A stretch of 64,000 nt of DNA from Candidatus Gottesmanbacteria bacterium RIFCSPLOWO2_01_FULL_43_11b (GTDB taxonomy: Bacteria; Patescibacteriota; Microgenomatia; UBA10105; UBA927). The translations under genes and the position numbers were made by a program. This document shows, one piece after another, positions 323 to 16,693 of this stretch (within the stretch, counting starts at the first letter, position 1; each line of letters begins with the position of its first letter). A model generated the notes under the pieces. The model saw only the letters and a program-made list of their open reading frames with translations. It had not been told where the DNA came from and did not search any database. The stretch is from positions 300,049 through 364,048 of the forward strand of contig MFJV01000001.1 of the NCBI GenBank assembly GCA_001780985.1, written 5' to 3'.

Positions 323-970
323 ATGCGTGAAAACTACTCTTTATTTCTTTTATTACCCTACTCACTTTTATCACTAAAGAGAACTCAAGTACATCATTTC
401 CCTCTTGACACCTTTATTAATAATGGTTTTACTGGATATATGGTTAATAAATTTCAAACGAATGCGTCTAATGTGCCGTATTATCTGAATAATCTGGAAA
501 TGTTATTTACCGATTTTTTACAGCAGGCGGGATCATCGGAAAAAACGCGGAAAAACTACAAAAGTGACGCGAATCATTTCTTAGGCTGGTTTATTTTCAA
601 ACTTGAATCCGCGGATCGTCTCCCTCATTCGCATATTGAATTCGTTCAGCGCATCACTCCGCGGTTCGTTGAGCAATATAAAACTTTTTTGCTAGTAAAC
701 AATATTCCAACAGCAACAATCAATCGCAGGCTCTCAACCATTCGAAGTTTTTTCAATTTCTGTCAAACACAAAAGTGGATTTCAGACAGCCCTGCTAAGA
801 ATCTTGCCACTGTTCGATCAAAAAAATTAGAACAGTCACGTTCCCAGGAAGACATACTTTCGTCATTTGCGCGGGATCTCAAAATGGAGGGTGCTTCAAG
901 GGCGACAATAAAAAATTACGTAAGCGACGTCCGGCTTTTTCTCCGTTGGAAAGATATTTATGCCGTTTAA
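323..970 (+). CDS. Protein of tandem phage-integrase-type N-terminal SAM-like (core-binding) repeats with no catalytic recombinase domain; probably joined by a +1 frame junction to the giant gene that follows
   Basis: 215-aa [29 protein letters not shown] ... [12 protein letters not shown] forms one complete core-binding-type helix bundle. A second N-terminal half follows ([28 protein letters not shown]). No R..HxxR..Y catalytic motifs. The stop overlaps the ATG of the 960 ORF, whose first 45 aa are a third copy of the same motif. Confidence 0.55.
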
Positions 971-3900
971 ACCTGCCAATCTCACCCAATACGAAGAACA
1001 CCTTGCTGACCAAGGATACTCTCCTGCAACAATTGCGCGAAAAAAAGCCTCTGTAGGTAAATTTCAACAGTGGGCTGATTCGCGGGAAACGATTACGATA
1101 CCGGCTGAAAACGAACACCCACGGAAAAGTCGCGCATGGATGTATGGAGTTTTGTTAGCACTTGGTGGTATTGGATTGCTAACCATGATCGTCATAGTAC
1201 TGTTGAATCAACAAAGCCGGGTAGCCCCAGCAATTACCAGCCGTGCAGTTGTTGTTGAACCAACACCTGGCACTCGGCCTACCCCGACTGCTACTCCTAC
1301 CCCAGAGGTAAGCACGGTTGCAAAATCTCAAGAGATCCCCTCATCTCAAGCATATACGATCAGCGGAGAGACTGTTACTATCACTACTTCCCCATTTAGC
1401 AACGGCGACATAACGCTCGCACCCGATGGTCAGGGACAGTTCCTCATTCGATCGAGTACAAGCACAGAGAATTCCGTAGATGTTCGCAATGCCAATTTAA
1501 CAACCGGTGCCCTTCTCTACGGGAATGTAGGTAACAGCAATCTTGGGTATGATTTCCTGCGCTTTACCAACGGCCCGGATGAAAAACTCCACTTCTCGGT
1601 CGATGCCTCCGGCAATACCTATATCGGAGGAAATGCAACGATTGAAAATATCCTGCTTGTCGATGAATTAAAGACTAAAGATGCCTCAGCCATACAGCTG
1701 GACAATGCCATCACGTTTAAAGATGCCGGTACGATATCAACAACCAATGGTAATTTGAATCTCCAACCCTCTGGAGTCGTGAATATTCCGGTAATTATCC
1801 AAAATCTCTCAACAAGTAACAGTGGGAGGGTGCAAATCAACGATGATTTACAAATCTATGGATCAGAATGGATTTCAGGGGGGTTAGATGTCAATGGTCG
1901 TACAATTCTCAACAGCAGCCTTCTCATTAAAAATGGTTATGGGCTGCCTGGGTTTGAATTTACTCTTGCCGGCGATGCGACAATTTCCGGAAGTCTTTCT
2001 CTTGCCCCGAACGTGCCGGGTTACGTTGGCACATGCGATTCAAGTAAAGCAGGACTGATCTATTATGATGGAGTTGTAAATATTCTGTACTATTGTAATG
2101 GAACAACATGGGTTTCTGCTGAAAGCGGTGTGGGCGGTCCCACCGGTGCGACTGGGGCGACTGGGGCAACGGGAGCCACCGGAGCGACAGGAACGGCTGG
2201 AGCTTCCGGCCCAACGGGTGCTACCGGAGCGACAGGCGGAGCTGGTCCGACTGGGAGCACCGGAGCAACGGGGGGTGCTGGTGCTTCTGGACCGACCGGG
2301 TCAACTGGTGCAACCGGTGGAGCCGGTATAGGTGGAGCAACGGGGAGCACAGGCTCTACGGGAACAGATGGACCAACCGGACCAACCGGGGCGACAGGGT
2401 CTGCTGGACCAACGGGAGCGACCGGAGCGACAGGAGATGGCGGTCCGACGGGATCCACGGGTGCAACCGGAGCAGATGGACCGACGGGTGCAACAGGCGC
2501 AACCGGAGCTACCGGTACTGCTGGAGCTTCTGGTCCAACCGGAGCGACCGGGCCAACAGGAGGTCCCGGTATTGGAGGGGCTACAGGAAGTACAGGTTCC
2601 ACAGGAGTTGAAGGGCCCACCGGAAGCACGGGGGCGACGGGAGCGAATGGACCCACAGGAAGTACCGGCCCCACTGGGTCAAATGGACCAACGGGGGCGA
2701 CGGGGGCCACGGGTGCAGCCGGAAGCGATGGGCCAACGGGAAGTACGGGGGCCACCGGAGGCGGGGGGCCAACCGGACCAACGGGAACAACCGGTGCTAA
2801 CGGACCAACCGGAAGTACAGGGCCGACGGGGGCCAATGGACCAACGGGAAGTACGGGGGCGACGGGAGCAACGGGAACGGTGGGAGCAAGTGGGCCGACC
2901 GGAAGTACAGGAGCAACAGGGGCTAGTGGGCCGACCGGAAGTACAGGAGCAACAGGAGCTAATGGACCGACGGGATCTACTGGTGCTACAGGCGCAACAG
3001 GGACCGCAGGTGCTTCCGGACCGACGGGAAGTACAGGTGCAACCGGTGGTAACGGACCCACTGGATCGACCGGACCGACGGGATCTGCCGGACCAACCGG
3101 AGCGACTGGTGCGACGGGGGCCACGGGCACTGCTGGTGCGAGTGGACCAACAGGGGCGACTGGGGCAACTGGTTCTAATGGACCAACGGGAAGCACAGGA
3201 ACTACCGGATCAAATGGTCCTACTGGAGCCACAGGCGCAACGGGAGCTACTGGTGCGGCAGGTGCTTCCGGTCCTACAGGAGCAACCGGGTCAACGGGAG
3301 GAGATGGTCCGACGGGAAGTACCGGTGCAACAGGAACAAATGGACCCACCGGTGCAACCGGAGCCACAGGCGCAACAGGTGCAACCGGCGCAAATGGGCC
3401 CACTGGGGCAACCGGAGCGACGGGCGCAACCGGAGCGACGGGAACCGCCGGCGCTTCCGGACCTACCGGCGCAACAGGAGCAACCGGCGCAACGGGAGCA
3501 ACCGGAGACAACGGTCCCACGGGAAGTACCGGCGCAACAGGTGCAACCGGAGGGGATGGTCCGACAGGTCCCACCGGGACAACGGGGGCTAATGGGCCGA
3601 CCGGTGCAACGGGTGCAACGGGTGCAACGGGTGCAAATGGGCCAACAGGATCGACAGGGGCAACTGGCGCAACAGGAACAGATGGGCCGACAGGATCAAC
3701 GGGTGCAACAGGAACGGGTGGCCTCGGTGGTGCAACGGGGGCAACGGGAGGAACAGGAGTTGCTGGTTCTTCCGGACCGACCGGGGCAACTGGCGCAACC
3801 GGGGGAACTGGCGCAACCGGGGTACAGGGACCGACAGGTACGACTGGTTCAACGGGAACAACGGGAGCAAACGGCCCAACTGGGATGACTGGGGCTACCG

Positions 3901-6900
3901 GCGAACGTGGTGCCGCGGGTGAAAATCTCTTTGATCAAACGAATAATCTTATTTACCCCTACCCTGTCGTCAATCGCAGTATTGCTTTGGGAAGCGACAT
4001 ATTTTCTCCCGCCGATGATCCGTCAACAACATCAACTGCGAGTGCCCTTATCATGCTCAATGGCGATAATGGACAGATCTGGGGAGCAGATACTACGATA
4101 GGAAAAAACATCCGGACCGACCTACGAGCACTTAGTAACGTCACCGATGTGTTCGTCTATGATACAAGCAAAGACTCCGACGCCGGATTATGGAGAAATG
4201 ATGATCGGGGCAAAGCAACAAGCTGGTACAACGAAACCATTGATAACCCGGCCGCCACCTGTGTCGTGGATACCGACGATCGCTGTGGCAACAGAGAGTT
4301 TCCAGCCAAAGCCATTATCGTCGTAACTACTACCAAAATGTATATATATGATGCATACGATAACACGCTGTGGATGGATTTCCGCAAAGGCGCGACCACG
4401 ATCGAGCAAATGATCGGGCCGACCGATAATTCCACAGGTTCCAGTGTCTGGGCGTTAAACGGCAAGATTTACTATGCAAATAACGGCTCGGTCGGAGGTC
4501 TCTATGTCATCGATCTTCTCAACGACCGTGCCTACAAATACGACGCCACTAATGATTACGTCGGCGACAAAACCGTGGGAACCAGAAATTCGACGGTCAC
4601 CTGGACGGCCGGACCATCATCACCCATCGTGAATGCAACGATCAATGATATCATGGCACGGGTCATCGGTGGAGACACATACGCTGTCGTAGGAACCGAT
4701 GCAGGTATGTCCGTCATTAACGAAACCGACCGCGCGGTCTTTGATTATGACGATGAGGTGGGAACGGCAGATAACGACTACAATAGCGTCTGGCTCGACC
4801 GTGATGGTAATCTCTGGGACCTCAACGAAACTGCGGGGCAGCTCGATAAATGGACAAACGTCATTGCTGACTCTGCCGATGAAAATCCCGGTAATCCGGA
4901 TACCGTCTGGGACGAATCCTCTACCCCGGCGCTTTTTGACAGCGCGCAAACGATAAACGTGGCACCTTCTGCCCTCACCGTCCGTGAGGGGACGAGTACG
5001 GTGGACGGAAAATCTCCGACCGTTTACGTCGGCCACAATGGCGGACTCACGGCGCTTTCTACCAAGGCAGATGATGAAACCAACGGCTCGGTCAAATATT
5101 ACACCAACTCATATATTACCGAAGAAATGATAGGAGATATCCGCGGCATGTGGCCTTTATACGGCAGTGGTTCCATTGCCGACGGAACCAACAATATCGA
5201 CGATGCCTCAGTCAAATCCGAAGAGCTCACCGCCAAAAATGCCAACGGCACAGGTCTTGCCTACGCCACAGGAGTACGGGGAACGGGAATAAGTTTTGAC
5301 GGAACCGACGATTATCTCTGTTCCGACACGAATGATGACGACACCTGCGACGACACAGCAAATCTTGAATTCGGCGCATCACCCACATTCTCCTACGGGA
5401 CATGGTTCAATGTTAATTCCTCCGGAGGGAATGAATGCGCCGTCAGTGATAAAAATGGGTGTGTAAACTCGACGGCCGGCTACTCCGTGTATAAGGATAC
5501 CACGGACAAGATTGTATGCCGCATCGCAGACGGAAGCAACGCCGCAACGGCCACAACCGTCGGGACACATGCCGACAGCCTTTGGCACCAGGTAACCTGT
5601 ACCGTGGATGGATCAAACATCCGAATCTACATCGATGGGATTCTTGACGCGACATCAAGTATTGCAACCGTGACTGGCTCAACCAACAACACATTACCAT
5701 TTATTATTGGGGGTCAGGGGTCACCAACCACCAATTTTTTCTCGGGATCTATTGACGATGTTTTCGTTACGGCGGAAGCTCTCACTCCGGGTCAGATCAG
5801 AAACCTATACCAAGTTGGCTACCGCGCTTCGCAAAACCATACAGCAGGACGAATTACAAATATCGGAGCGGATGATTATCAGCATCTTTTGGGAAATGCC
5901 TCCGGCGGCACCTCAACCAGTAGCCGTGTGTTTTCTGCCGCAGTCGATGATAGCAATCAATTTATTTATGCCGGAATCAACTCAAGCGGCGATAACACCG
6001 GTGGAGTGACGGTGCTTGGAATTGACAGCGACAGTGCTCTTGATCTTTATGACACAACGGCAAATACCAGTAAAGACGACGATATCGGTACGCAGTTTAA
6101 CGCCAGCGATGCGCTTGCGATATCTGTAGCTGGTGCTCCGTGCCCTGCGTACAACGGCGGCACGACCGCCTGCAACAATAGTGCCACCCTCGCAATCGCC
6201 GGAACTGACGATACGAACTATCGAGTCTGGATGGAGACGTCGGAAATATCACTGTATAACGCGCTTTCTCTTATCAGTAGTCCGTCACTCACGAAAAACA
6301 ATATGACCGTCAACAACATATTCACGATCTACAATACCTATAACAATCTGGATCAATCATCTACAGGAGAAACGATCCAAACCCCGGCGCTTTCCGTCGA
6401 CAGCAACGGGAACCTCGTCTACAACTATCTCGGCACATCAACAAGCGCAACAGCCATGGACTTCAACGATTCCGTACTCACTACAGGAACCATGCTTGAT
6501 CTAACTTCCACGACGCTCACGACGGGAGATGCGCTCAAAATTACCACAAACGCCCTCACGAGCGGCAATGCGCTCGATATTTCCTCAACGAGCACGGCCA
6601 TGACGGGCGATTTGGCGGCGATTACGCTTTCCGGAAGTAACGCTGCCAACACCGGCTCGCTTCTTTCTCTCACTAATAGTGGTACAGCTAATACCGGGGA
6701 GACTCTCTATATCAAACACTATGCTACCGGTACAAATAATCTCGCGATGCGCGTAGACGATGTAAGTAGCGATACGTCACCCTTTGTCATAGACGGCGCA
6801 GGCAACGTCGGCATCGGCCAGTCGGCGCCAGTCAGTCAACTTTATATTGGAAACAATGCCGACAGCTGGACCGATGCGTCCAACTCCCAGGTGACCATAG

Positions 6901-9900
6901 AAGGCGTTGATAATGAAACGACAGTCAAAGCGTTTTCGGTGAAAGATGAAAATGCAAACGAGTACTTCTTCCTTAGCTCCGTTGCCGGCTCTAACAACGG
7001 AATAGCATATTTCAAAGGCAATGTTGGCATTGGCGATACTGGTCCGGATTATCATCTGGAAATCAGCGATACCACCGATACTCCGGTTCTGGCCCTTTCT
7101 GATGATGATATCGCCCAGGGATTCACCACAGATGTAGCAGAGACAGACGTGTTTGCTCACCTTACCTCCCTCTCCACAACTGCAGGAGGAGTCCAGTTCA
7201 CTGCGCTTTCCGATACTGACGCTCAAGCCCTTTCCATCAAGGCCGGTATTGGATCTGCAACCCCTACGGATACGACGCCCGCGATCAAGTTTATCGGTGG
7301 TAAATTAAGTGGTACGACATTCGGCGATCTTGACGTCACCTCTGCAATCACGTCAACTACCGCAGAAACGGTCTTCCAAATTGCCAACAACAATGACACT
7401 GCGGGATTTACTATGTTGGGGAATGGAAATATAGCTATTGGTAATAATGTAAGCCCTTTGGGAAAACTGGTTATTACTTCAAATCCCTTAGGGTCCGACT
7501 ACACAACCGGCCACGCGGCACTCATCGTCGACCAATTTGAAACCCAGGATATTATCGCCGCATCCGCCTCTGGAGTACTTCGCTTCAAAGTAGAAAGCGA
7601 CGGAGATGTTGTTTCGCAACGGTTTATGGATTCGGCAGACAATACTTACCTCATAGATCCGGCGAACGCCAGCACGGCTCTTACCCTAGCAGGAAGTGCC
7701 GGAATCGGCGACACCACACCCGATTATCTTTTGGAATTATATGACGCAACCGCCACACCCGCGTTTGCTCTTTCCGATGATGATATCGGCCATGGGGTTA
7801 CTACCCTGGTCCAAACAGACGTCTTTGGGCATCTGTCCTCGGTCTCCTCGTCCGACGGGGGCCTACAAGTAACCGGACTGGCCGACGCTACGGGAATAGC
7901 GTTGGGGCTCAAAGGGGTTCAGTCTTCCAATCCGACAGACACAACACCTGCAATTTCACTCATCGGAACCAAAGCCAATGGCACGGGGGTTCAGGATTTG
8001 GATTCTGCAGAAACCGTGCTCCAAATAGCCAACAACGATAATACCGCAGCCCTGACAGTTCTAGGAAATGATTATGTCGGAATCGGGACAACCACCCCGT
8101 CAACCCCGCTTGAAGTTGCAATTAATAACGCCACCAATAACGACATTACCAATCTTTTAACCCTGACCCACACCACCTCCGGAACTGCCACAGGTGGCCT
8201 TGATGCTGTCCTTCTCCATATGGACGGAGATGATGCTTCAACGACTTTTACTGACGAATCAGGCAAAACATGGACAGCCAACGCCAATGCCCAGATTGAC
8301 ACGGCTCAAAGCAAGTTCGGCGGAGCATCGGGTTTATTTGACGGCACCGGTGATTACATTAACACCGCAGATCATGACGACTTTTATCTCGGCAGCAGAG
8401 ACTGGACCTTTGATTTCTGGATAAGACATGTATCAAATGCCACAGATGAATATATCTTTACTCAATATGCAGATGCCAACAATTATTTCTACATCCTGGC
8501 AAATGGAGGGGGAAATACGCTAGCTATCGTACAGGCAGATTCAAGCACAACCAGATGGTCATTCACAGCCCCGTGGAATCCGACAAACGCCACCTGGTAT
8601 CATGTCGCAATCGAAAGAGAAGGAAACACTCCAAGAATATTCATAGGCGGTGTAGCTCAAACTGTTACCGAGGTAACCACAATTGCCGGAAAAACGGCGG
8701 CTGACATTGCCGCAAGCCCAAGAATCGGGATAAACGGGGTGGGCAGCGCAGGTCTTAACGGCTGGCTGGATGATTTCAGGTTTACCAACGGCACTGCCCG
8801 CTGGAGCAGCAACTTCACCCCGCCGGCAAGCGCAGTCACCTATCAAGGGGGAACAGTCACCGGAATAGGGACAGGTCTTCTTTTCAGGACGGAAGATTCG
8901 GCCGGCAATACGGAAAACGCCGGCAGGATATATTCTGCTCTAAATAAAACCACCGACGGAGAGGAGACGTCCCAAATGACTTTTGAGACAAGAACCGGCG
9001 GAGCGGCTCTAACTCCCGCGATGAGACTTAACGGAATCGGGAATCTAACCCTAAAAGGTTCGCTAATTCAATCCAGCACACCGGATATTGCCGAAAATGT
9101 GATTGTGACTGACCCGACGGTTGAGGCGGGAGATATCGTGGTAATTGATCCGTCCTATCAACCGCCGGAGGGGGCCAATATTTATAACCGCTTTGCCGCC
9201 AAAAAGGCCGAGACACCCTATTCGCAGCAGCTTCTGGGAGTAATTTCGCAGGACCCGGGAATTATTCTTAATGCCCCTGAAGACGCGGTTGATACCGGCG
9301 AGCAAAGTGCTGCCAACGAGCGGCCTTTGGCTATTGCCGGCCGTGTTCCGGTCAGGGTTTCCACAATTAACGGCAATATTAAAAATGGCGACGCCATTAC
9401 CGCCTCGATGATTCCCGGAGTCGGGATGAAGGCAACCGGCGAAGGCAATATCGTAGGCCGCGCTCTGCAGGCATTTAGCTGTGAATCTCCCGATACTCCC
9501 TGCGAGGGCAAAATCCTTGTCCTTGTGTCCACTTCCTGGCATAAACCCAAAATTTTTGAAGAGGGCGGGATAATAACCACGATCATCCAGGACGCCCAAA
9601 CTTTGGTGTATCAGGTGGTGCAAACGACGGCCGAGGGCATTGACCGGATCGCCGAGGAGATTGGAGTTTACGCCAATTTAATCGCGGCAAACATTAACGC
9701 GGGACTGATTGAAACAAAAGAACTCAAAACCGATACTCTCTCTCCCATTGCTTCGGATAGCGCAGGGATCGCCGTACGCCTAGGGCCGGAACAAACGTTT
9801 ACCATCACCGACAGAGAAGGCACTCCGTCTGCACGCTTTGACAACTTGGGGAACGCTACATTCTCTGGTGAACTAACTGCGAGTGAAGCAAGTATTTCCG

Positions 9901-10658
9901 GCAATTTATATGCTGACCGTGTTCAGACTTCGTTTGGAGATTTAGATGCTCGGCTGATTGGTCTCGAAGCGTCAATTTCAGCTATTGGTTACATTGCTCC
10001 ACCTGATGAGTCAACAAGTTTAGCAACCAATGTTCCTGACCTCACCGTCGCCAATAATCTAACCGTCTACGGACAGACGAGTTTAGGCCCCGTAAGTGTT
10101 GCCGGATCTCTCCTTGTTGATGGCGTCATACAGTTGTCGCAGCAGGGAATCGACTTTCTCGGTGACACGTTAGATTTTCTCAGCGGCGTTCTTCGCCTAA
10201 GTGCAAACAGAATTGAAGTCGGCGCGCCCATTGCTCCCATTCCAGGCCAAGATCTCACGATAGATCTCGAAAAACCGTCATCCGGCTTCGGCACGCTTCT
10301 CGTCAAAGGAAATGTTTACACTGAGGGCAATATCGCTGCCCGAAGTGCCACTGTCTCGGGCGAACTCACCACCCGAAAGCTCATTATAGCTAACGATCAA
10401 GCCTCACCAAGTGCGGAACTATCTGAAATTTCAAGTAACGCGACAGTCGGAGTCGGCACAATACAAGCTGAATCACTCGAAGTAACTATTCCCACTACTG
10501 CAGTAACAGATTCATCATACATCTATATCACACCGACAACTTCTACAAATAACCAAGTACTATATGTAAAGTACAAGATCGCCGGAAGCGGATTCGTTGT
10601 CGGATTTGATCAAATTGTTCCTGCTGATGTGGAGTTTAACTGGTGGGTGATTAATTAA
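960..10658 (+). CDS. Giant membrane-anchored surface protein (3232 aa) with N-terminal SAM-like segment, signal-anchor TM helix, Thr/Pro linker, collagen-like Gly-X-Y region, two LamG/ConA-like lectin domains and tail-fibre-like repeat modules
   Basis: Uninterrupted 9.7-kb ORF. TM helix [23 protein letters not shown] at ~1138-1210. [10 protein letters not shown] linker. About 200 GXY triplets. LamG motifs ([22 protein letters not shown] ... [21 protein letters not shown]; [10 protein letters not shown] ... [20 protein letters not shown] ... [15 protein letters not shown]). Repeated NVGIG(D/Q)(T/S)xP modules. Confidence 0.85.
2130..3920 (+). repeat. Collagen-like Gly-X-Y triplet repeat (about 200 triplets, mostly GPTG(A/S)TGATG) inside the giant gene, highly repetitive at DNA level
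   Basis: Continuous G-x-y periodicity from ...[14 protein letters not shown] to ...[14 protein letters not shown]. Reverse-strand Pro/Val/Ala-rich ORF 2090..3574 and +-strand ORFs 2098..2331 and 2332..3888 are frame shadows of this repeat. Confidence 0.85.
6780..8110 (+). repeat. Three tandem, diverged ~100-150-aa tail-fibre-like modules within the giant protein
   Basis: Module starts [17 protein letters not shown]..., [48 protein letters not shown]..., [47 protein letters not shown].... Each ends in ...QIANN(N/D)(D/N)TA(G/A)(F/L)T(M/V)LGN. Confidence 0.5.
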
Positions 10659-10705
10659 CTTTACAACTTACAACTTTACAACTTATAACTTGATAATTTA
10701 CAACT
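10657..10705 (+). repeat. Imperfect heptamer array (T)TTACAAC x ~6 directly upstream of the four-helix-bundle gene start
   Basis: aactttacaacttacaactttacaacttataacttgataatttacaact, ending 5 nt before ATG 10711. Confidence 0.8.
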
Positions 10706-10710
10706 AGGTA

Positions 10711-11070
10711 ATGAAAAAATTTCGTTTTCTCGAGTGGAAAGTTTACAAAGACGCGAAGAATCTATTCGCTAGACTCCTTACGATTGTTAAAAGACTTCCA
10801 AAAGAATATCGTTTTGAATTGGGAAGTCAGATTATTAGATCGGGACTTTCTGTTGTGCTCAATATAGCCGAGGGAAGTGGGAAAAATTCAGATAAGGAAC
10901 TTAACCGTTATTTCGATATCTCCCTTGGGTCATTACATGAAGTTTTGGCATGCATTGATGTACTGAAAGACAATAAGCTTATAACAGAAAAAGAGTTTAA
11001 TGATATTTTTACTTTAGTAAATGAAATTTCCAACCAATTAGGAGGCTTCAAGAAAGTTGTTAAGTTGTAA
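10711..11070 (+). CDS. Four-helix-bundle protein (TIGR02436 / 23S rRNA intervening-sequence protein family; DGR Avd-like fold)
   Basis: 119 aa. Family-typical LxxA..L...VV.L...I.R.......LNIAEGSG....KE...F..ISLGSL.E....I.V. The last four residues are encoded by the downstream repeat array. Confidence 0.8.
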   Translation: MKKFRFLEWKVYKDAKNLFARLLTIVKRLPKEYRFELGSQIIRSGLSVVLNIAEGSGKNSDKELNRYFDISLGSLHEVLACIDVLKDNKLITEKEFNDIFTLVNEISNQLGGFKKVVKL

Positions 11071-11096
11071 GTTGTAAGTTGTAAGTTGTAAGTTGC
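11056..11096 (+). repeat. Heptamer array (GTTGTAA) x ~5.5, the inverted complement of the array at 10657..10705
   Basis: gttgttaagttgtaagttgtaagttgtaagttgtaagttgc. Overlaps the last codons and stop of 10711..11070 and lies 5 nt from the stop of the pilin gene on the minus strand. Confidence 0.8.
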
Positions 11097-11100
11097 GTAG

Positions 11101-11580
11101 TTAATCCGCACACAATTTATATTCCCCGGGGGTAGGGGTGGGATATCCGCAGCGGGCTTGGCTCGCTCCGATATCTGCGTCTGAGGCGTTCTCAAGAACA
11201 ACTTTTGCCAGAAAATCATCTGTATCAGTCGGTTTAAGAGGATGCCGGTTATACAAATACTCGACCGGTAGATTTTTCATGTACACGGTCTCTCCGCCCG
11301 ACGGCCCTGCTTGAAAAGGACCTGTCTGGGAACAGGCTGACGTCCCCGTAGTCCCACAGCCATTGATGAGAGTGCCTGTGCCGCTCGGGTAACTATTAAA
11401 GTCATTGTAATAGAGCCGAAGAGCACTTTTGAGCTCCCGCAGTTCCGCTTTTCTCTTGGCATCTTTAGCCCGCTGTCTGGCTCCAAGAAAATTTGGAAGT
11501 GCTACACCCACGAGGGCGGCAATAATCGTTATGACAACCAGAAGTTCGATAAGTGAAAAACCTTTCTTACTATTTTTCAT
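11101..11580 (-). CDS. Type IV pilin / pseudopilin-like protein with class III (prepilin peptidase) signal peptide
   Basis: MKNSKKG|FSLIELLVVITIIAALVGVALP. G-1/F+1/E+5 motif and hydrophobic N-terminal helix. Confidence 0.75.
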   Translation of the reverse strand: MKNSKKGFSLIELLVVITIIAALVGVALPNFLGARQRAKDAKRKAELRELKSALRLYYNDFNSYPSGTGTLINGCGTTGTSACSQTGPFQAGPSGGETVYMKNLPVEYLYNRHPLKPTDTDDFLAKVVLENASDADIGASQARCGYPTPTPGEYKLCAD

Positions 11581-12122
11581 GGATCGTTTATGAGTGTTCT
11601 TCCTGTATTTGGTGTTGTATTGGTACTACTCCTTCCATAATTACACAATTTTGTCCCGCAGTACAGGTTTTGGTACGCTTGGGGCGTACTGCCGCTTTTT
11701 TGTACATCTGCATCATCGGTATTTTCCAATCGTGCATAGAGCTGGTAGGAATTATTTCCACCACCGACATCATAATAGTACGAGTGAATTGCAATTGGAT
11801 CTTCGGGAAGTTCTACCATGTAGATCGTGTTGTTTTGATCTTTAAATTCCTCTCCCCATTCGCATACTGTTGCCCCGGCTGACCCGCACGCAGTAATCTT
11901 ACCTCCGCTATTATCATTCGGGTATTTACCGGTGTCGTTAAAATAAAGCTCGAGAGCAGAAGTAACATTTTTTATATCCGTTTTCCTTCGGCTATCACGG
12001 CTTTTGGTTTGGGATGATCGGAATGTCCCAAGTCCGAGGGTAATGAGTATCGCCAAAATCAGAATGACGACGATTAACTCTATGAGTGTAAATCCGCGCG
12101 ATTTCAAAAGTTTATTATTCAT
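11577..12122 (-). CDS. Type IV pilin-like protein (start trimmed to the internal Met; the long upstream extension is judged spurious)
   Basis: MNNKLLKSRG|FTLIELIVVILILAILITLGL prepilin motif. ATGA overlap with the downstream pilin gene. The upstream 96 codons of the track ORF (11577..12410) are Ala/Arg-rich and overlap the neighbouring gene. Confidence 0.7.
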   Translation of the reverse strand: MNNKLLKSRGFTLIELIVVILILAILITLGLGTFRSSQTKSRDSRRKTDIKNVTSALELYFNDTGKYPNDNSGGKITACGSAGATVCEWGEEFKDQNNTIYMVELPEDPIAIHSYYYDVGGGNNSYQLYARLENTDDADVQKSGSTPQAYQNLYCGTKLCNYGRSSTNTTPNTGRTLINDP

Positions 12123-12156
12123 AGTTGTTAGTTGTTCGTTGTTTAGTTGTCGGTTA
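12123..12156 (+). repeat. GTTGT-type heptamer array (agttgtt agttgtt cgttgtt tagttgt cggttat) in the 34-nt gap between two pilin genes, directly upstream of start 12122 on the minus strand
   Basis: Same motif family as the arrays at 10657..10705 and 11056..11096. Confidence 0.6.
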
Positions 12157-12882
12157 TTATGGGCACCAGTTGTCTGGATTCCTGCAAGCCTCGACACAGG
12201 TAGCGACATCGTCAAAAGACGCCGGACAGCCACTCTGCTGCGGGTTAGTGTACGTATTGCAGTCACCTCCCGGCGTGCAAGCCAAACTCCCATAATACCC
12301 ACTCGCCGGCGTTGGCGTTGGGCCGCCGCCGCCATCACCACCACCGTCACCACCCGGTGTGGGCGTTGGCGTTGGGCCGCCGCCGCCATCACCACCACCG
12401 CCAGGAACAAACCCTTCTGCTACAACCGAAACACCTACCGAATTACAAAAATTGTATCCCTCCCCCCACCCACATCCCTCGACGGGGTCACAGCCAAGCG
12501 AGGTAATGGCAGGATCGCTCGTGTCTTTGAGGGAAGCGCAGGCGCGGTACCCCAAACAGGGATTTGCTTCCGGCACGTATAAATAGGGCTGTTTCGTAGA
12601 GGGGTCACAAGGAATTTTATCAAGGTATGGAACCAGTGTTGCTGCGCCGCAACTATCGAGAATTCCAGAGTCGGGGTAACACCCCTTGTCATTGTAGTAC
12701 TCTTCAAATGCAGTACGTATTGCATTAAGGTCGCTTTTTCGCTTCGCATCATAGCCCCTATCAATTTGTCGTTTCCAGTTAAAAAGGGCAACGACGGTAA
12801 ACAGAACCAGGATAATCGCAATTGCGATCAGGAGTTCTGCCATCGTCCACCCCTGCCTGCCGGCAGGCTGGCCTTCTTTCAT
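12157..12882 (-). CDS. Type IV pilin-like protein with Gly/Asp and Pro/Thr low-complexity repeats (start trimmed to Met16 of the track ORF 12157..12927)
   Basis: MKEGQPAGRQG|WTMAELLIAIAIILVLFTVVALF with E+5. Internal GGGGDGGGGPTPTPTPGGDGGGDGGGGPTPTP. Confidence 0.65.
   Translation of the reverse strand: MKEGQPAGRQGWTMAELLIAIAIILVLFTVVALFNWKRQIDRGYDAKRKSDLNAIRTAFEEYYNDKGCYPDSGILDSCGAATLVPYLDKIPCDPSTKQPYLYVPEANPCLGYRACASLKDTSDPAITSLGCDPVEGCGWGEGYNFCNSVGVSVVAEGFVPGGGGDGGGGPTPTPTPGGDGGGDGGGGPTPTPASGYYGSLACTPGGDCNTYTNPQQSGCPASFDDVATCVEACRNPDNWCP
12308..12402 (+). repeat. Direct tandem duplication (~54 nt unit, 1.75 copies) inside the pilin-like gene, encoding GGGG(D)GGGGPTPTPTP
   Basis: ggcgttggcgttgggccgccgccgccatcaccaccaccg occurs twice in tandem. 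Confidence 0.7.
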
Positions 12883-13204
12883 ATAGTTTTTAGTATGACA
12901 TGGATATTGACTCTGTGCAAATATCAATACTACTATAGTATATACAATGCTGCCTCAGAAACGCCTGCTACTTCTGCTATCAGTTATTGTCGTTCTCCTC
13001 TACGTTGGACTCAATGTCGCAATCTATCTCTGAGGCACAACGATCTCTCAAAGCAAATTCGGGAAAGCAGCCACGAATCTTTCCATCATCAAAGAACAAA
13101 AAAAACCACAATCAACACAAACCACTAGGGAAATCCCCTTCACCCCCCAACAAGTTGTCCTCCCAAGTGGCTCTCAAACATACCGTTTTTCCCACGGAAA
13201 AGAC

Positions 13205-13480
13205 GTGATAGGCCCCAAACCTGAAAGTATCACCATCGATCCCCTTACCCCGGAGAAAAACCAGACGCAGACTGTAATCGTTGCAATCAAAGATCCGGTT
13301 GAAAGTGCTGTTGTCGAACTTACCACTGACAATCAAAAAACTCAGCACGATCTTAAAAATAATAACGGAAACTGGGAGGGGGTTTGGACAGTGGACGATA
13401 ATTATGACAACACGAACGCCATGCGGTTAATTTTGAAAAACAAAAGCTATACCTATGATCAAACGTTATACTTTCGATGA
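13205..13480 (+). CDS. Hypothetical small protein (possible beta-sandwich fragment) with a GTG start
   Basis: 91-aa ORF in an otherwise gene-poor ~650-nt stretch. No recognisable family, and it could be a gene remnant. Confidence 0.25.
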   Translation: MIGPKPESITIDPLTPEKNQTQTVIVAIKDPVESAVVELTTDNQKTQHDLKNNNGNWEGVWTVDDNYDNTNAMRLILKNKSYTYDQTLYFR

Positions 13481-13539
13481 GAATTAGGGATTAGGGGGAT
13501 AGTATTTAGTATATAGGGATTAGCATAGAGGAAAACAAT

Positions 13540-13803
13540 ATGCAAAATGAAGATAACGGCAAAATTACAAGCTTTACCCAGCTTATTGCGTGGCAAAGAG
13601 GACACCAGTTAGTACTCAATATCTATAATATGGTGAAGAAATTTCCATCGGAGGAGCGATACGGATTATCGGATCAAATGAGGCGTTGTGCGGTGTCTAT
13701 TACATCGAATCTCGCCGAAGGATTTTCCCGACAGGGCAAAAAAGAAAAAATTCAGTTTTATTTTACTTCACGAGGTTCACTCACACTTCGACGGCACCAT
13801 TGA
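13540..13803 (+). CDS. Four-helix-bundle protein (TIGR02436 family), 3'-truncated relative to the family norm and overlapping the next ORF
   Basis: 87 aa. LIAWQRGHQLVLNIYNMVKKFPSEERYGLSDQMRRCAVSITSNLAEGFSRQGKKEKIQFYFTSRGSL matches helices 1-3 of the family, but the ORF stops about 30-40 aa early (...TLRRHH*). The downstream LamG ORF begins inside it in another frame. Confidence 0.65.
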   Translation: MQNEDNGKITSFTQLIAWQRGHQLVLNIYNMVKKFPSEERYGLSDQMRRCAVSITSNLAEGFSRQGKKEKIQFYFTSRGSLTLRRHH

Positions 13804-15635
13804 CGAGCCTTTCTTTGTTAGAAAATCCCTTGCCTATGAAGAGGCTGCCGAGGCCTACCGCGCCGGGCGCGACCACTACCTAAATAAAACCATTTCCTCA
13901 ACCGATTTATCCGGTAAACAAACGCTACCCTTCTACGTCGCCGCAGACCGGCCGGGAACGTATCTCGAGGCCACCGTCGGCGAGAACGCCTTTGCCAACT
14001 ACCAGCCTGATTCCAACACGGTTGGCTTATGGCACCTTGCCGAGCAATCCGGTTCGGGGGAATACATCAAAGATAGTTCCGGTAATTCCAATCATGGAAC
14101 TCCAACAGGAACTACTTTTACCCAAGGTAAAATTGGCAAAGGGAGAAATTTTGCGGGATCTTCAAGCCACTGGATCGGAATTAATTCTCCAACTTCCGGG
14201 ATTACTGCTGGCGGAGTAAAAACCGTTAGCGCGTGGATAAATACATCGTTGGCTACAGACGAAGTTATATTTAACGCATATGATGGAACGAATGGTTACC
14301 AAATTTATGTAGGCGGAGGGGCTTTTTACAGTTGGAGTAATGGTGGCGCAACTCTAAGTTCTTCTACTGTAGTTAATGATGGAAAATGGCACTATGTAGT
14401 AGCTGTTTTGGGATGGAACAGACGCTTATTTATATGTTGATGGAGTCCAGAGAAACTCGGGAGCCAGAACAATTTCGACAAGCACAACACCTCAAGCCCA
14501 AATAGGTACACAATGTACAGGATCTTGCCCCACCGGCCAAGCGGTTAATTTTAACGGTACTATTGATGAAGTCAGAGTTGACAATACCGCCCGCACTGCA
14601 GATGAAATCCGGCAGGCGTATGAGGTCGGGAAACGAACCCATCCGGTGACGATTGATTTTGGAGCAAAACTCGATAGTGGCGATGATTTAAGCGATCTCT
14701 CATTTACGATTGATGCCACCTATTACGGACTTAACAGTAAAGGCAGTAATTTGTATAAAGGCGATAAAATCATAGTCCGGGAAAACGTCGACGGTACCGA
14801 ATATATCTCCCAGGGAACGGTAACGGCGGTGACGGCCTCAACCGGTGCAGTAACTGTTGCTGCCTGGGATTCAGGATCCACCGTCCCCTCCGGCGGATTT
14901 ACCGTAAACGCATCAGTATTCAAATGGCAGCGGGAATACTTTGATCCCACCGGATCGCTGTCTACCCACCGCGATGCAATAACTAATCTCACATTCAGGT
15001 TAACCGATGGCGCCGAAGGCCGGACCATCTGGCTTGATGATCTCAAAAGCAGCGGCGGGTATCTTACCACACCAGAAGGATCAACGATCGCTTCTTCTTT
15101 AGACAATCAGTATTTCCAGTACCGAATTGTCGAGATGACCAATGACACAGCGGTTTCGGCAAGCCTAACTTCGTTAACGGGTGGCTATGGTTCCTTGGGT
15201 ATACCGATTTCGGGTAATTATATTTATACCACTACTTCGGCTAACACGAGTGATTTTATAACACGCTACGTTGACATCAACGATCCCACTACCCCCCGTT
15301 ATGTTTTGGGGGTAGACAACGGCGCGGACGAGGACGCCGACAATACGGCCAATTTTGAAGTCCAAAGCGGTGCTTTAACCATAAATGCAAGTGACACTTT
15401 AGTGGCGGGGACTATGACTCTGACCGGAGGCTCGGTGGCCATTGCCAACGGCGGCCAGATCGTCATCGGGCAAAAGTTATGGACGGTCGACCAGGATGTC
15501 GACGGCTGGTCGTTGAACCGAAGGTTGGGGTACGGTAGTAAACCAACCAACGGACGGCGTAAAAATTTGATGGCCAGCTTTGGCGCAAATGACTGCGACG
15601 ATACGGTAAACAGTTCAACCAACACCTGTCAGTGA
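13688..15635 (+). pseudogene. LamG/ConA-like lectin-domain protein with C-terminal DxDxDG...CDD metal-binding-type motif, interrupted by a 1-nt frameshift at a GGG run (~14409-14411); the track splits it into ORFs 13688..14440 and 14646..15635
   Basis: Frame A carries GLWHLAEQSGSGEYIKDSSGNSNHGT...KWHYVVAVLG then a stop. Frame B opens at 14403 and continues DGTDAYLYVDGVQRN...FNGTIDEVRVDNTARTADEIRQAYEVG, the canonical end of a LamG_3 domain. Deleting one G restores ...VAVLDGTDAYLYVDGV. No internal Met in the first segment except M1, which lies inside the upstream 4HB gene. Confidence 0.5.
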
Positions 15636-15655
15636 AGTGATGTTATTGAAAAATC

Positions 15656-15814
15656 TCCTGGGCGGTTGACCAGGACGCTGACGGCCACTCTTTAGACCGC
15701 CGGCTCTGGTACGGTGACCAGCCAACAAACGGCAGACGTAAAAACTTGATGACCAGCTTTGCCGTTGCCGACTGCAACGACACGATCTATGATACCTCCA
15801 ACCTCTGCCAGTAG
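15656..15814 (+). repeat. Promoterless, start-less, diverged (~70% identical) duplicate of the last ~50 codons of the LamG gene, including the DQD(A/V)DG(H/W)S...CNDT motif and its own stop
   Basis: Translation AVDQDADGHSLDRRLWYGDQPTNGRRKNLMTSFAVADCNDTIYDTSNLCQ* compares with the gene end TVDQDVDGWSLNRRLGYGSKPTNGRRKNLMASFGANDCDDTVNSSTNTCQ*. It lies in a different frame, with a stop 7 codons upstream and no ATG. Confidence 0.7.
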
Positions 15815-15842
15815 TTCAGGTATGTGATACAATAAATGTACT

Positions 15843-16052
15843 ATGCCGCTTGTTTGGGATTATCCGAAAGCTAAACTCACGAGATCCCGCCGCGGTTCCG
15901 TACTACTTCTTGAGCGATTGATTAATTTTGGACCGGGAAAAGGAGAAAAAATTCACCTGCGGAAAGTAAAAGAACACTGGGGGGCCCTCCGCTTGTTTCC
16001 GAACAAACGGCGGCTCATGGAGCTTTTCTTATGGGGAAAGCCACAATCTTAA
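15843..16052 (+). CDS. Small hypothetical protein directly upstream of and overlapping an AbiEii toxin gene; possibly a truncated or remnant AbiEi-type antitoxin
   Basis: 69 aa. Overlaps 16031 ORF by 22 nt. No confident family match from sequence alone. Confidence 0.3.
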   Translation: MPLVWDYPKAKLTRSRRGSVLLLERLINFGPGKGEKIHLRKVKEHWGALRLFPNKRRLMELFLWGKPQS

Positions 16053-16693
16053 CACCGAGACAAACTGAGCTCATACGGGCACTTTGCGCAGACACATTTT
16101 TCACCGACACGTTTTATTTTACCGGAGGAACTGCGCTTTCAGAGGTGTATCTCAAGCATCGCAAAAGCGAAGATCTGGATTTTTTTTCCGCCCGCACGTA
16201 TGATCCCCAACGAATTCTCCACGCGTTAACGCGGTGGTCCAAAACACAAAGATTTTCTATCAAAACGGACTTTGTCGAGCCTACGCATATCTACGTGCTG
16301 ACATACCCCGATGGCCACGCTGTCAAAGTGGACTTTGCTACATATCCCTACCCAAGCCTCGATACGCCAAGCCGGTATCGGGATACCTTGTCCGTGGACA
16401 GCCTGTTTGATATTGCCGTCAACAAACTCGTAACCATTACCCAACGCACGGAGGTGAAAGATTTTGTAGATCTTTATTTTCTATTCCGGCAGTTTACATT
16501 TTGGACCCTCCGGGACGGCGTTAAAACCAAATTTAATATCGAGATAGATCCATATGGAGTTGCCTCAAATTTCATGGCTGTAGAAGACTTTGATTTCCTT
16601 CCGATCATGCATACCCCATTGACCCTACAGGCGCTCAAAATGTTTTTCCGGACCAAGGCAAAAGATCTGGGGAAAAAGAGCATCGCCCCTTGA
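16031..16693 (+). CDS. abiEii: AbiEii / AbiGii-family nucleotidyltransferase toxin (type IV TA system, DUF1814)
   Basis: FYFTGGTALSEVYLKHRKSEDLDFFS matches the GGTAL...RxSxDLDF nucleotidyltransferase signature of the family. Confidence 0.75.
   Translation: MGKATILTPRQTELIRALCADTFFTDTFYFTGGTALSEVYLKHRKSEDLDFFSARTYDPQRILHALTRWSKTQRFSIKTDFVEPTHIYVLTYPDGHAVKVDFATYPYPSLDTPSRYRDTLSVDSLFDIAVNKLVTITQRTEVKDFVDLYFLFRQFTFWTLRDGVKTKFNIEIDPYGVASNFMAVEDFDFLPIMHTPLTLQALKMFFRTKAKDLGKKSIAP

Follow-up and report, generated by a model that had tools for sequence, protein, structure and literature searches.

This locus raises the question of what is encoded by the single intact open reading frame (ORF) at 960-10658 (+), which was read as a 3,232-aa protein in the window (the whole 64-kb stretch of DNA that was analysed). 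A sequence-only reading had described it as a long fibrillar adhesin. The architecture was supported by LamG domains and by tail-fibre-like segments (a Pfam LamG match, a match to MAT fibres and matches in BFVD), and the result that would have refuted that reading, a lack of both LamG and tail-fibre-like resemblance, was not obtained. The adhesive function remains a suggestion. We favour, with moderate confidence, a membrane-anchored homotrimeric fibre of more than 170 nm, of CPR/Patescibacteria type and built like phage tail fibres and the MAT adhesins of Bdellovibrio; the collagen and the homologies point to the trimeric state. Giant surface fibres form a large, unstudied family in ultra-small (CPR) bacteria, and the protein is a member of it. 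The CPR affiliation is based on the names of relatives and on exact gene matches in metagenomes from groundwater. Relatives were located on Mb-scale CPR chromosomes, and modules were found to be shuffled among them in mosaic fashion.

The N-terminus and the membrane anchor

The N-terminal part comprises the following features:

323..970, + strand: upstream ORF of 215 aa with integrase SAM-like units (Phage_int_SAM_1, E 1e-13)
972..1082, + strand: second half of a SAM-like domain (integrase N-terminal type), aa 5-41, predicted cytoplasmic (weak Pfam match, profile positions 45-81 only)
1134..1214, + strand: single transmembrane signal-anchor helix, aa ~59-85 (Kyte-Doolittle)
1257..2126, + strand: membrane-proximal Ser/Thr/Asn/Gly-rich region, aa 100-389 (composition)

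Conceptual fusion of the two ORFs gave a complete SAM-like domain spanning the junction (37.7 bits, profile positions 3-81 of 83). The giant gene probably started with the upstream ORF originally, and a frameshift of 1 nt in the T-run 957-959 separated the two. Since the N-terminus is apparently split in this way, expression of the intact product is uncertain. Phage_int_SAM_1 was found at the N-terminus in 30 of 45 long family members (this protein counted); together, SAM-like or HTH domains occupied this place in 33 of the 45, with a MerR/excisionase HTH in three. Such a predicted cytoplasmic domain ahead of the membrane helix is an odd trait common to most long relatives.

When the whole protein was scanned, the Kyte-Doolittle mean over 19 residues exceeded 1.6 only in windows starting at aa 59-67, with basic residues upstream. 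This single hydrophobic helix bears out the N-terminal anchor that had been proposed. The region at aa 100-389 gave no Pfam match besides the collagen edge.

The collagen stalk and the modules beyond it

The stalk and the modules that follow it are arranged as listed below:

2127..3926, + strand: collagen triple-helix stalk, aa 390-989 (Pfam Collagen PF01391, E 2e-65)
3927..5279, + strand: conserved domain, aa 990-1440, co-occurring with LamG (55 relatives, many with PF13385 downstream)
5367..5798, + strand: LamG/ConA-like domain 1 (LamG1), aa 1470-1613 (Laminin_G_3, 76 bits, E 4.4e-21; Laminin_G_2, 27 bits)
5832..6449, + strand: uncharacterised beta-rich region, aa 1625-1830 (weak similarity to aa 1144-1380, BLAST E 0.002-0.003)
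6456..6872, + strand: conserved fibre segment, aa 1833-1971, with capping-loop motif 1 at its end (aa 1950, 6807-6842) (homology, motif)
7011..7439, + strand: module A, aa 2018-2160, with capping-loop motif 2 at its start (7023-7058) (duplicate of module B)
7440..7685, + strand: spacer segment, aa 2161-2242, a different fibre unit unlike modules A and B
7686..8111, + strand: module B, aa 2243-2375, with motif 4 (7698-7733) and motif 5 (8076-8111) (duplicate of module A)
8340..8792, + strand: LamG/ConA-like domain 2 (LamG2), aa 2461-2611 (Laminin_G_3, 47 bits, E 3.6e-12)
8793..9083, + strand: last fibre segment ahead of the C-terminal cassette, aa 2612-2708, with GIG-type motifs (sequence; similar to segments of relative P0073)

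The stalk that had been noted before was confirmed as 200 G-X-Y triplets without interruption, with Thr at Y in 143 of them; if fully helical, it would be about 172 nm long. NCBIfam collagen-adhesin models scored 183-255 bits on the repeat, all under the family cut-offs (325-500). Bacterial collagen-like proteins (BclA of Bacillus anthracis, Scl1/Scl2 of Streptococcus, Lcl of Legionella) likewise combine a Gly-X-Thr-rich stalk with a globular distal part. Compared with these, the stalk of the giant protein is several times longer, and the protein has neither an LPXTG or exosporium anchor nor a C1q/TNF-like head.

Two LamG/ConA-like domains had been claimed at 5270-5830 and 8310-8810. Both were detected within these intervals by Laminin_G_3 (PF13385), above its gathering cut-off of 27.6 bits. 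The ending 'W..V....DG....Y.DG' given as diagnostic was found in LamG1, where a stretch of 19 residues fits it, but the corresponding 19 residues of LamG2 fit only loosely. PDB relatives of the LamG domains were remote (neurexin, E 0.015; S-layer-domain protein 4qvs, E 0.002) and no sugar site was identifiable in either domain; Laminin_G_3 denotes a fold and is no proof of sugar binding; glycan binding is a putative function. LamG2 matched PHROGs 24074 (E 1e-48), 3545 and 8510 ('virion structural protein'). As here, a LamG domain lies ~50-65 aa ahead of the cassette in relatives P0077, P0078, P0086, P0021, P0117 and P0150. No Pfam match was obtained for aa 1625-1830, and neither a Pfam nor a PDB sequence match for aa 990-1440.

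The NVGIG(D/T)TxP motif reported between the LamG domains was confirmed and is more frequent than chance allows. Matches to [VIA]G[IV]G.{2,3}P.{2,4}[LVI] occurred at aa 1950, 2022, 2247 and 2373, and a degenerate copy was found at aa 2156 (7425-7475), the end of module A, giving four (or five) copies against 0.02 expected from 2,000 shuffles. Three diverged tandem modules had been proposed for this region; only two ~140-aa duplicates could be demonstrated (A and B, 53% identity, E 1e-39), and in self-comparison the stretches between motifs, aa 1950-2020 and 2161-2242, differed in content. Fibre segments recur in relatives: aa 1833-1971 were 59-69% identical to segments of P0015, P0024, P0026, P0027, P0031 and P0033, and aa 2131-2245 were 61% identical to P0009. 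The core of module B (aa ~2269-2389) was predicted as a compact beta domain (AlphaFold pLDDT ~90), while aa 2612-2708 were modelled with low confidence (pLDDT <50).

The tail-fibre-like character attributed to the motif region was supported by several searches. A profile of aa 2010-2445 matched MAT fibres of Bdellovibrio in the PDB (Bd2133 8ond, E 2.6e-13; 8oml, 8e-8; 8ojn, 1.4e-4; also 8ol4 and 8on4), and the Bd2133 match falls on the motif-bearing strands. Relatives of the fibre modules bear Peptidase_S74, mtd_2nd or Phage_depo_C. The AlphaFold model of the module region, one of a set of monomers of mediocre confidence (pLDDT 63-69), gave nine matches in BFVD at E<=1e-3 (best 3.5e-7) to viral fibre, S74 and IMC proteins. 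Foldseek searches of the module models against the PDB gave nothing significant. Peptidase_S74 and BppU had been suggested as profiles to search; in Pfam scans neither matched the giant protein, nor did any other named phage receptor-binding family. Among PHROGs no family matched the modules or the cassette, matches being confined to LamG2.

In MAT fibres three chains intertwine into a beta-helix that bears capping loops (PMC10769870). Those of Bd2133 and Bd3182 (Caulton et al. 2024, PMC10769870) carry a GNVGIGTxxPxxKL-type capping-loop motif on beta-helical segments, as does the giant protein, and share with it the mosaic exchange of modules or tips, lectin-type tips in some members and kinship to phage S74 fibres. 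[quoted passage not shown] In contrast, the giant protein has 3,232 aa and starts with a predicted cytoplasmic SAM-like domain and a TM anchor; its collagen stalk spans 600 aa, it carries LamG twice, and its terminal cassette is of G2 type rather than S74 type. S74 fibres (phage T5 pb1, K1F endosialidase; MyRF) follow the same logic, in which a C-terminal, trimer-dependent folding module comes after a triple beta-helix. S74 was found at the equivalent place in relatives P0070, P0204, P0007, P0011 and P0036, whereas the giant protein showed no PF13884 match (E<=10, any segment) and no SDxxxK-type match.

The C-terminal cassette

The C-terminal region had been described as rich in Ser/Thr/Asn repeats. 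Self-comparison revealed no repeats, and the region turned out to be a conserved multi-domain cassette with the following parts:

9084..9095, + strand: D-I-A-E, aa 2709-2712, predicted autocleavage/catalytic motif (alignment to phi29 gp12)
9084..9551, + strand: Peptidase_G2-like beta-barrel body, aa 2709-2864 (pLDDT 84-97)
9552..10433, + strand: middle of the cassette, aa 2865-3158, helices and beta-helix-like strands (predicted secondary structure)
10434..10655, + strand: terminal beta-sandwich, aa 3159-3232, tailspike C-terminal-like (pLDDT 84-96; Foldseek)

This gp12-like and putatively auto-processing cassette, overlooked by the sequence-only reading, is the most informative part of the protein. 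Relatives of the ~525-aa cassette numbered 6,884 at E<=1e-3 and 151 at E<=1e-30, and in all 70 best-covered relatives inspected it ended 0-36 residues from the C-terminus. The cassette start matched the C-terminal chain of phi29 gp12 (3gqh_A) from its first residue (hmmsearch, E 0.0025). With hhalign (93.9%, E 1.6e-7, 76 columns), P-D-I-A-E was aligned with S691 and D692-F-A-E695 at the gp12 junction, and a cut is predicted between P2708 and D2709. D-x-A-E was near-invariant in the family (D in 32/34, A in 34/35 and E in 32/35 non-gap rows), and the residue preceding the Asp was not conserved.

Mature gp12* of phi29 consists of residues 1-691 (PMC6542822), and the gp12 chaperone has a beta-stranded body that is released by auto-proteolysis (PMC4690869). 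The cleavage junction and the ~75 residues that follow it in gp12 (Peptidase_G2; 3gqh/3gqk, 3suc) align with the cassette start, and both chaperone and cassette have a beta-stranded body and are strictly C-terminal. They differ in length (~525 aa against a 163-aa chain) and in the site of assembly, extracellular here and cytoplasmic for gp12; cleavage of the giant protein is a prediction. The gp12 alignment was limited to the first ~76 columns. Pfam Peptidase_G2 (PF11962) did not match the giant protein itself, while it was found in 3 of 43 family members (best 4.4e-9) and in relative P0068 (1.2e-4). Foldseek with the cassette did not retrieve the gp12 chaperone; its matches to the barrel were capsid decoration proteins of phages, with weak scores. 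In relative P0070, S74 at 529-582 is followed by a homologue of aa 2857-3232, S74 replacing the G2-like barrel.

Bactofilin-type matches were obtained for the middle of the cassette in 4 of 43 family members. The terminal sandwich matched the Pam1 tailspike 7eea (Foldseek E 5.5e-3, prob 1.0), K1 lyase 7w1c/d (prob 0.94-0.99), K64-1 depolymerase and the Sf6 tailspike. K1-lyase_C (PF24146) reached 25.2 and 23.9 bits on the giant protein, against a cut-off of 27, and matched 10 of 43 members (best 6e-8). The last ~74 residues are predicted, with high model confidence, to resemble the sandwich of tailspikes and depolymerases (PF24146; cyanophage Pam1 7eea; Sf6), but the beta-helix lyase or hydrolase domain of such proteins was not found in the giant protein.

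Proposed assembly and alternative explanations

The computed part of the case consists of the domain identities, the motif statistics, the homologies to MAT fibres and to the gp12 cleavage region, the family-wide conservation and the strict C-terminal position of the cassette. In the fibre that we favour, the cytoplasmic integrase-SAM-like domain and the single signal-anchor helix would hold the N-terminus in the membrane, with the remainder outside (a putative N-in/C-out topology). Going outward, the 200-triplet collagen (~170 nm) would be followed by the aa 990-1440 domain with LamG1, by beta-helical segments punctuated by capping-loop motifs and including two duplicated ~110-aa knob domains, by LamG2 and by the cassette. 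The cassette may act as an intramolecular chaperone: after export, three cassettes would associate, fix the register of the chains and start the folding of both the intertwined beta-helix and the collagen, which would proceed toward the membrane. Cleavage at the gp12-type D-x-A-E motif would probably follow and release the cassette, so that LamG2 and a short stub of beta-helix would form the distal tip; the position of LamG ahead of the cassette in the six relatives agrees with this. As candidate elements for binding a ligand, probably a glycan, in contact with another cell, we consider the LamG domains and the knob modules; a role in episymbiosis is conceivable.

The cassette might instead be retained as the functional tip, capping and trimerising the fibre in the manner of a tailspike and perhaps binding or even degrading a polysaccharide, with the LamG domains as lateral accessory binders. 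The resemblance of the terminal sandwich to C-terminal domains that are not cleaved (Pam1, K1 lyase, Sf6), the K1-lyase_C and Bactofilin-like beta-helix matches and a length three times that of the gp12 chaperone are in keeping with this. Moreover, cleavage of gp12 is reportedly ATP-dependent, and ATP would be absent outside the cell. However, one would expect variation to be greatest in a receptor-binding tip, and no part of the protein is more conserved or widespread than the cassette; the cassette also bears a near-invariant motif at the gp12 cleavage position, its barrel can be exchanged for the self-cleaving S74 module, and Pfam scans found no catalytic depolymerase domain. We regard retention as unlikely. 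It is distinctly unlikely that the protein is a non-adhesive coat or spacer fibre like the hair-like BclA nap of the Bacillus exosporium, where a glycosylated Gly-X-Thr brush would shield the cell or act as a spacer and LamG would bind the cell's own envelope glycans. The BclA/Scl-like Thr content at Y and the adjoining sugar-modifying and glycosyltransferase genes (DegT, epimerase, GFO/IDH, PMT_2, YfhO) agree with such a coat, but the distal 1,800 aa consist of modules common to fibres that recognise prey or hosts (MAT, S74 fibres, Mtd-type proteins), and mosaic shuffling is typical of recognition proteins.

The neighbouring genes are envelope glycan genes and pilins, and no phage genes were found within the 64-kb window, so the context is cellular rather than viral. 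A phage or prophage tail-fibre gene would account for the tail-fibre-like motifs, the G2-type IMC, the C-terminus resembling tailspikes and the matches between LamG and structural families of PHROGs. We consider such a gene extremely improbable given the context, the membrane anchor preceded by a cytoplasmic domain and conserved in the family, the chromosomal location of relatives and the lack of a PHROGs family for modules or cassette. There is equally little to expect from reading the locus as a decaying pseudogene whose first ~212 codons were cut off by the frameshift at 957-960. That a complete SAM-like domain requires a 1-nt correction speaks for inactivation, but no stop interrupts the 9.7-kb frame downstream, which has an ATG of its own at the junction. 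This is unlikely for a decaying gene, and the frameshift may stem from an error of assembly or be a split that the cell tolerates.

A further idea, to which we attach little credence, is a class of contact-sensing fibres in which tip binding, tension or loss of the cassette is relayed to the cytoplasmic DNA- or protein-binding domain, or in which that domain tethers DNA at the site of host contact. If true, prokaryotes would have an equivalent of MyRF and other membrane-tethered regulators that works from the outside in. The conserved combination concerned joins a cytoplasmic domain of DNA-binding type (SAM-like in 30 of 45 long relatives, HTH in three) and one TM helix to an extracellular trimeric fibre of giant size that ends in a putatively self-processing cassette.

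The idea of a diversity-generating retroelement target, prompted by a bAvd-like gene downstream, was not borne out: no TR/VR-like direct repeat was found in 8800-16000 and no RT among the neighbours scanned, and the four-helix protein encoded downstream matched 23S_rRNA_IVP better (97 bits) than bAvd (35 bits, cut-off 40).

Gene structure, stalk and lectin-fold domains

The giant protein has 3,232 aa and is encoded by a single unbroken ORF at window positions 960-10658 (+), with nt = 960 + 3(aa-1). The interval 5270-10658, to which the sequence-only reading had assigned a lectin and tail-fibre architecture, spans aa 1437-3232, which is 56% of the protein at its distal end. The N-terminal anchor of that reading was found as one strongly hydrophobic helix (aa ~59-85). 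An integrase SAM-like domain is divided between two ORFs: its first half closes an upstream ORF (323-970), and its second half opens the giant ORF (ATG at 960, +1 frame), one base off frame. When one T was conceptually removed from the run at 957-959, a complete Phage_int_SAM_1 domain was matched across the junction (37.7 bits, profile positions 3-81 of 83); the giant protein's own N-terminus scored 17 bits only. The N-terminus of the gene appears to be split by a 1-nt frameshift (region 323-1082, junction at 957-970). Because the one-T deletion completes the SAM-like domain, the ancestral or true gene probably comprises ~3,444 codons and encodes a pair of SAM-like domains ahead of the TM helix. 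In 45 long sequences (the giant protein and 44 relatives) the N-terminal domain was Phage_int_SAM_1 in 30 and MerR/HTH in three, and in the long relatives the hydrophobic stretch comes after it. A SAM-like/HTH domain, predicted to be cytoplasmic, throughout the family may point to signalling.

The collagen stalk was borne out as 200 uninterrupted G-X-Y triplets at aa 390-989 (Pfam E 2e-65), 143 of them with Thr at Y; folded as a triple helix, the stalk would measure about 172 nm. Within the collagen-coding repeat (window 2090-3888, GC 0.64 vs ~0.43 elsewhere) there are two long ORFs, 2090-3574 (-) and 2332-3888 (+), almost certainly artefacts of this GC-rich triplet repeat.

Both proposed LamG/ConA-like domains were matched by Pfam Laminin_G_3 above its cut-off of 27.6 bits. 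LamG1 (aa 1470-1613) scored 76 bits (E 4.4e-21), with Laminin_G_2 also above threshold, and LamG2 (aa 2461-2611) scored 47 bits (E 3.6e-12). When module-region chunks were compared with the whole giant protein by BLAST, no similarity of the two LamG regions to each other became apparent, and at the level of sequence they are not recent duplicates of one another. A PHROGs search of aa 1181-3232 matched LamG2 alone (families including phrog_24074 'virion structural protein', E 1e-48), and an NCBIfam search of the giant protein returned sub-threshold collagen-adhesin models only.

Between stalk and LamG1, neither Pfam nor the PDB yielded a match for aa 990-1440 (window 3927-5279), although a 29-sequence profile was used as well. 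This region is a conserved domain, found together with Laminin_G_3 in many relatives of 600-790 aa, some of which carry the JGI name 'trimeric autotransporter adhesin'. Weak similarity (E 0.002) links it to the sequence that follows LamG1 (window 5832-6449), so LamG1 may be embedded within a repeated beta-rich domain.

Tail-fibre-like modules

The capping-loop motif (NVGIG..P) was found in strict form at aa 1950, 2022, 2247 and 2373, with 0.02 occurrences expected from shuffles, and as a degenerate copy at aa 2156. Three diverged tandem modules had been described in this region. Self-BLAST retained two clear duplicates, module A (aa 2018-2160) and module B (aa 2243-2375), at 53% identity (E 1e-39), and did not recover the third; the units between A and B are unrelated fibre units. 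A search with aa 1901-2445 collected 62 relatives, mostly unnamed metagenome or Patescibacteria proteins, in which single segments were up to 77% identical and other parts different, which in sequence terms is a mosaic pattern. Phage-fibre domains were found downstream of the module in several relatives: Peptidase_S74 (P0007, P0011, P0036), the second domain of Mtd (P0022) and Phage_depo_C (P0060).

Phmmer with the distal 2,252 aa against the PDB gave nothing useful, and matches to solved fibres came with profiles. A profile of aa 2010-2445 and 31 segments from relatives matched the Bdellovibrio fibres Bd2133 (8ond, E 2.6e-13), 8oml (8e-8), 8ojn, 8ol4 and 8on4, the aligned parts being the GNVGIGTxxPxxKL motifs and flanking strands. 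The AlphaFold monomer of aa 2010-2445 was confident in the module B core only (aa ~2269-2389, pLDDT ~90). Foldseek of this model against the PDB was not significant, the top matches nonetheless being T4 gp34, Bd2133 and HylP fibres; against viral predicted structures it gave nine matches at E<=1e-3 (best 3.5e-7), a list rich in 'intramolecular chaperone auto-processing', 'Peptidase S74' and 'tail fiber' proteins. A tail-fibre-like reading of the motif-bearing region is supported by motif and profile homology and by the domain architectures of relatives. It does not extend to the profiles named with it, as neither Peptidase_S74 nor BppU was found on the giant protein in the Pfam scan, and the protein falls outside the Peptidase_S74 fibres.

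The matched Bdellovibrio fibres have been described as mosaic adhesive trimers (MATs), which are intertwined trimeric beta-helices (Caulton et al. 2024, PMC10769870). Their beta-helix edges are shut by 'capping loops' with exactly the GNVGIGTxxPxxKL consensus, and they are akin to S74 phage fibres (T5 pb1, K1F), with variable adhesive tips (PMC10769870). The giant protein carries the MAT motif and is homologous to MATs, and we propose that it functions in the manner of trimeric fibres of MAT or phage type that have an intramolecular chaperone, but it differs from MATs in anchor, size, collagen stalk and type of terminal module.

The C-terminal cassette and a proposed assembly pathway

The C-terminal region had been described as Ser/Thr/Asn-rich repeats, which self-comparison contradicted, showing no internal repeats. 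It is a conserved part of ~525 aa (the cassette, aa ~2709-3232). When aa 2680-3232 served as query in an exhaustive HMMER search, 6,884 proteins were matched at E<=1e-3, of which 151 also passed E<=1e-30. They form a very large family, with many members of 2,000-4,000 aa, that could be mined for host-range determinants. Among the best 150 relatives, 34 had at least 2,000 aa, and in all 70 best-covered relatives inspected the match ended 0-36 residues from the C-terminus.

Against the PDB, a 43-member cassette profile matched the C-terminal fragment of the phi29 tail spike gp12 (3gqh, E 0.0025), starting at the first residue of that fragment. Hhalign of the cassette with gp12 residues 672-854 gave 93.9% probability (E 1.6e-7) over 76 columns and placed P2708-D2709-I-A-E2712 opposite S691-D692-F-A-E695. 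Mature gp12* consists of residues 1-691 (PMC6542822), and in phi29 the C-terminal domain acts as an intramolecular chaperone, has a beta-stranded body and is freed by auto-proteolysis (PMC4690869). The D-x-A-E residues are conserved in the cassette family (D in 32/34, A in 34/35 and E in 32/35 sequences). Pfam Peptidase_G2 was reached by three of the 43 members (best 4.4e-9), K1-lyase_C by ten and Bactofilin-type beta-helix models by four; one relative (P0068) has a weak G2 match immediately upstream of the region shared with the cassette. On the giant protein Pfam Peptidase_G2 gave no match, and the gp12 alignment was limited to the first 76 columns. By sequence the protein is only partly a Peptidase_G2 member, homologous at the junction and below the model threshold.

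In the AlphaFold model of aa 2620-3232, confidence was high for a beta-barrel (aa 2709-2864), for a terminal sandwich (aa 3159-3232) and for a small unit between them. Foldseek of the barrel did not retrieve the gp12 chaperone and gave weak capsid-decoration-protein matches instead. In one relative (P0070) an S74 module (529-582) stands in place of the G2-like barrel and is followed by a homologue of aa 2857-3232, and another (P0204) has both S74 and G2-type modules. Since S74 occupies the barrel position in the former and both types occur in the latter, two different predicted self-cleaving modules are interchangeable ahead of the same downstream part.

The domain identities and homologies of the giant protein are computed results; for its trimeric state, topology, chaperone role, cleavage, ligand and ecological role we infer the following. 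The protein would be inserted N-in through its signal-anchor helix, the exported chain terminating in the cassette. Three cassettes would join and set the chain register, and folding of both the trimeric beta-helix and the collagen helix would be nucleated there and run back toward the membrane. The P2708-D2709 bond would then probably be cut by the predicted D-x-A-E site, leaving LamG2 and a short beta-helical stub as the exposed tip. Candidate binding surfaces are LamG1, LamG2 and the two knob modules. One caveat to the proposed cleavage is that autocleavage of gp12 reportedly needs ATP, which is absent outside the cell.

Foldseek of the terminal sandwich retrieved tailspike C-terminal domains (cyanophage Pam1, 7eea, E 5.5e-3, prob 1.0), with K64-1 depolymerase, K1 lyase and Sf6 as further partners. 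Retention of the cassette as a tailspike-like tip is nonetheless unlikely in our estimate: the S74/G2 exchange ahead of a shared downstream part is more in keeping with an assembly cassette than with a receptor-binding tip. We consider it improbable that the fibre is a BclA-like glycosylated coat and not an adhesin. The N-terminal anchor and the gene context speak against a phage gene, and no phage genes were found around the giant gene when the window was scanned; we give this origin hardly any credence, and just as little to a pseudogene.

Type IV pili aside, little is understood of how ultra-small CPR/Patescibacteria locate other cells and stay attached to them. In published CPR work, 'giant surface proteins' appear in generic terms only (PMC8080830, PMC13059738), and no description of the cassette fibre family was found in the literature searched. 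Read as an adhesin with an assembly cassette, the locus supplies a concrete and testable anatomy for a giant CPR surface protein. The length of its collagen stalk equals the width of the cell, and the protein further has beta-helix segments of the trimeric phage/MAT type, domains of lectin fold and a folding cassette, predicted to cleave itself, for which a cut site is defined. The locus would carry the phage-fibre-derived adhesin principle, which experiments have so far demonstrated in Bdellovibrio, to a major uncultured radiation.

Relatives and gene neighbourhood

Homologues of similar length, for which the sequence-only reading had suggested a check, are present in CPR genomes. P0204 has 3,870 aa and the NCBI title 'tail fiber domain-containing protein [Candidatus Microgenomates bacterium]', and P0079 (3,060 aa, on a 1.2-Mb contig) combines MerR/HTH, collagen, LamG_3 and the cassette. 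As judged from domain content, the overall plan of the giant protein is repeated in long relatives. LamG lies ~50-65 aa ahead of the cassette in six relatives, as in the giant protein, and is present in 17 of 217 collected proteins; the pre-cassette domain is therefore variable. Inside its fibre, P0204 also contains an intein (aa ~1757-2009, Intein_splicing E 8e-32).

A scan of species-representative genomes with the single protein found 38 cassette loci. They lie in Gottesmanbacteria, Pacebacteria/Paceibacterota, Microgenomatus, Woesebacteria, Peregrinibacteria, Parcubacteria and TM6, together with MAGs labelled Gammaproteobacteria or Pseudomonadales. Open frames that contain the cassette are longer than 4,000 aa in three loci; in TM6 the length is up to 3,296 aa. 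The Gammaproteobacteria/Pseudomonadales labels look doubtful: they may be wrong, or the family may reach beyond CPR (a TM6 genome has the cassette too). Many of the MAG records with the cassette (loci L005, L007-L009, L011, L013, L032 etc.) are titled 'uncultured Gammaproteobacteria/Pseudomonadales', and one isolate name among them, HK-STAS-PATE-16, contains 'PATE'.

Around the giant gene, the window holds type IV pilin-like and toxin genes as well as sugar-modifying and glycosyltransferase genes (DegT, GFO/IDH, epimerase, PMT_2, YfhO), the DegT gene being identical to genes in Rifle-type groundwater metagenomes. For the giant protein itself, an exact search of public assemblies gave no entry.

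Selected neighbouring features in the window
10654-11105 (including repeat arrays): four-helix-bundle gene, 119 aa, directly after the giant gene; 23S_rRNA_IVP, 97 bits
11101-12410 (-): two adjacent type IV pilin-like genes (N_methyl and T2SSG), directly downstream of the fibre gene
16031-16693: AbiEii-type toxin gene, within the envelope-glycan gene neighbourhood
51120-52844: 574-aa protein with C-terminal NPCBM (glycan-binding) domain, within the envelope-glycan gene neighbourhood
55035-63986 (-): second giant ORF, 2,983 aa, hydrophobic helices at the C-terminus

The second giant ORF was rejected as a paralogue: it lacks capping-loop motifs and in sequence is not similar to the giant protein. 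The four-helix-bundle gene scored 35 bits against a bAvd-like model, below the cut-off. This neighbour prompted us to consider the giant protein as a DGR target, which was rejected as there was no TR/VR repeat nearby (8800-16000) and no RT among the neighbours scanned. The gene is flanked by inverted TTACAAC(TT) repeat arrays (10654-10705, 11054-11105) and resembles a small inserted cassette. The second pilin-like gene contains a near-perfect 42-nt repeat with a spacing of 54 nt (12308-12403) in a Gly/Pro-coding stretch.
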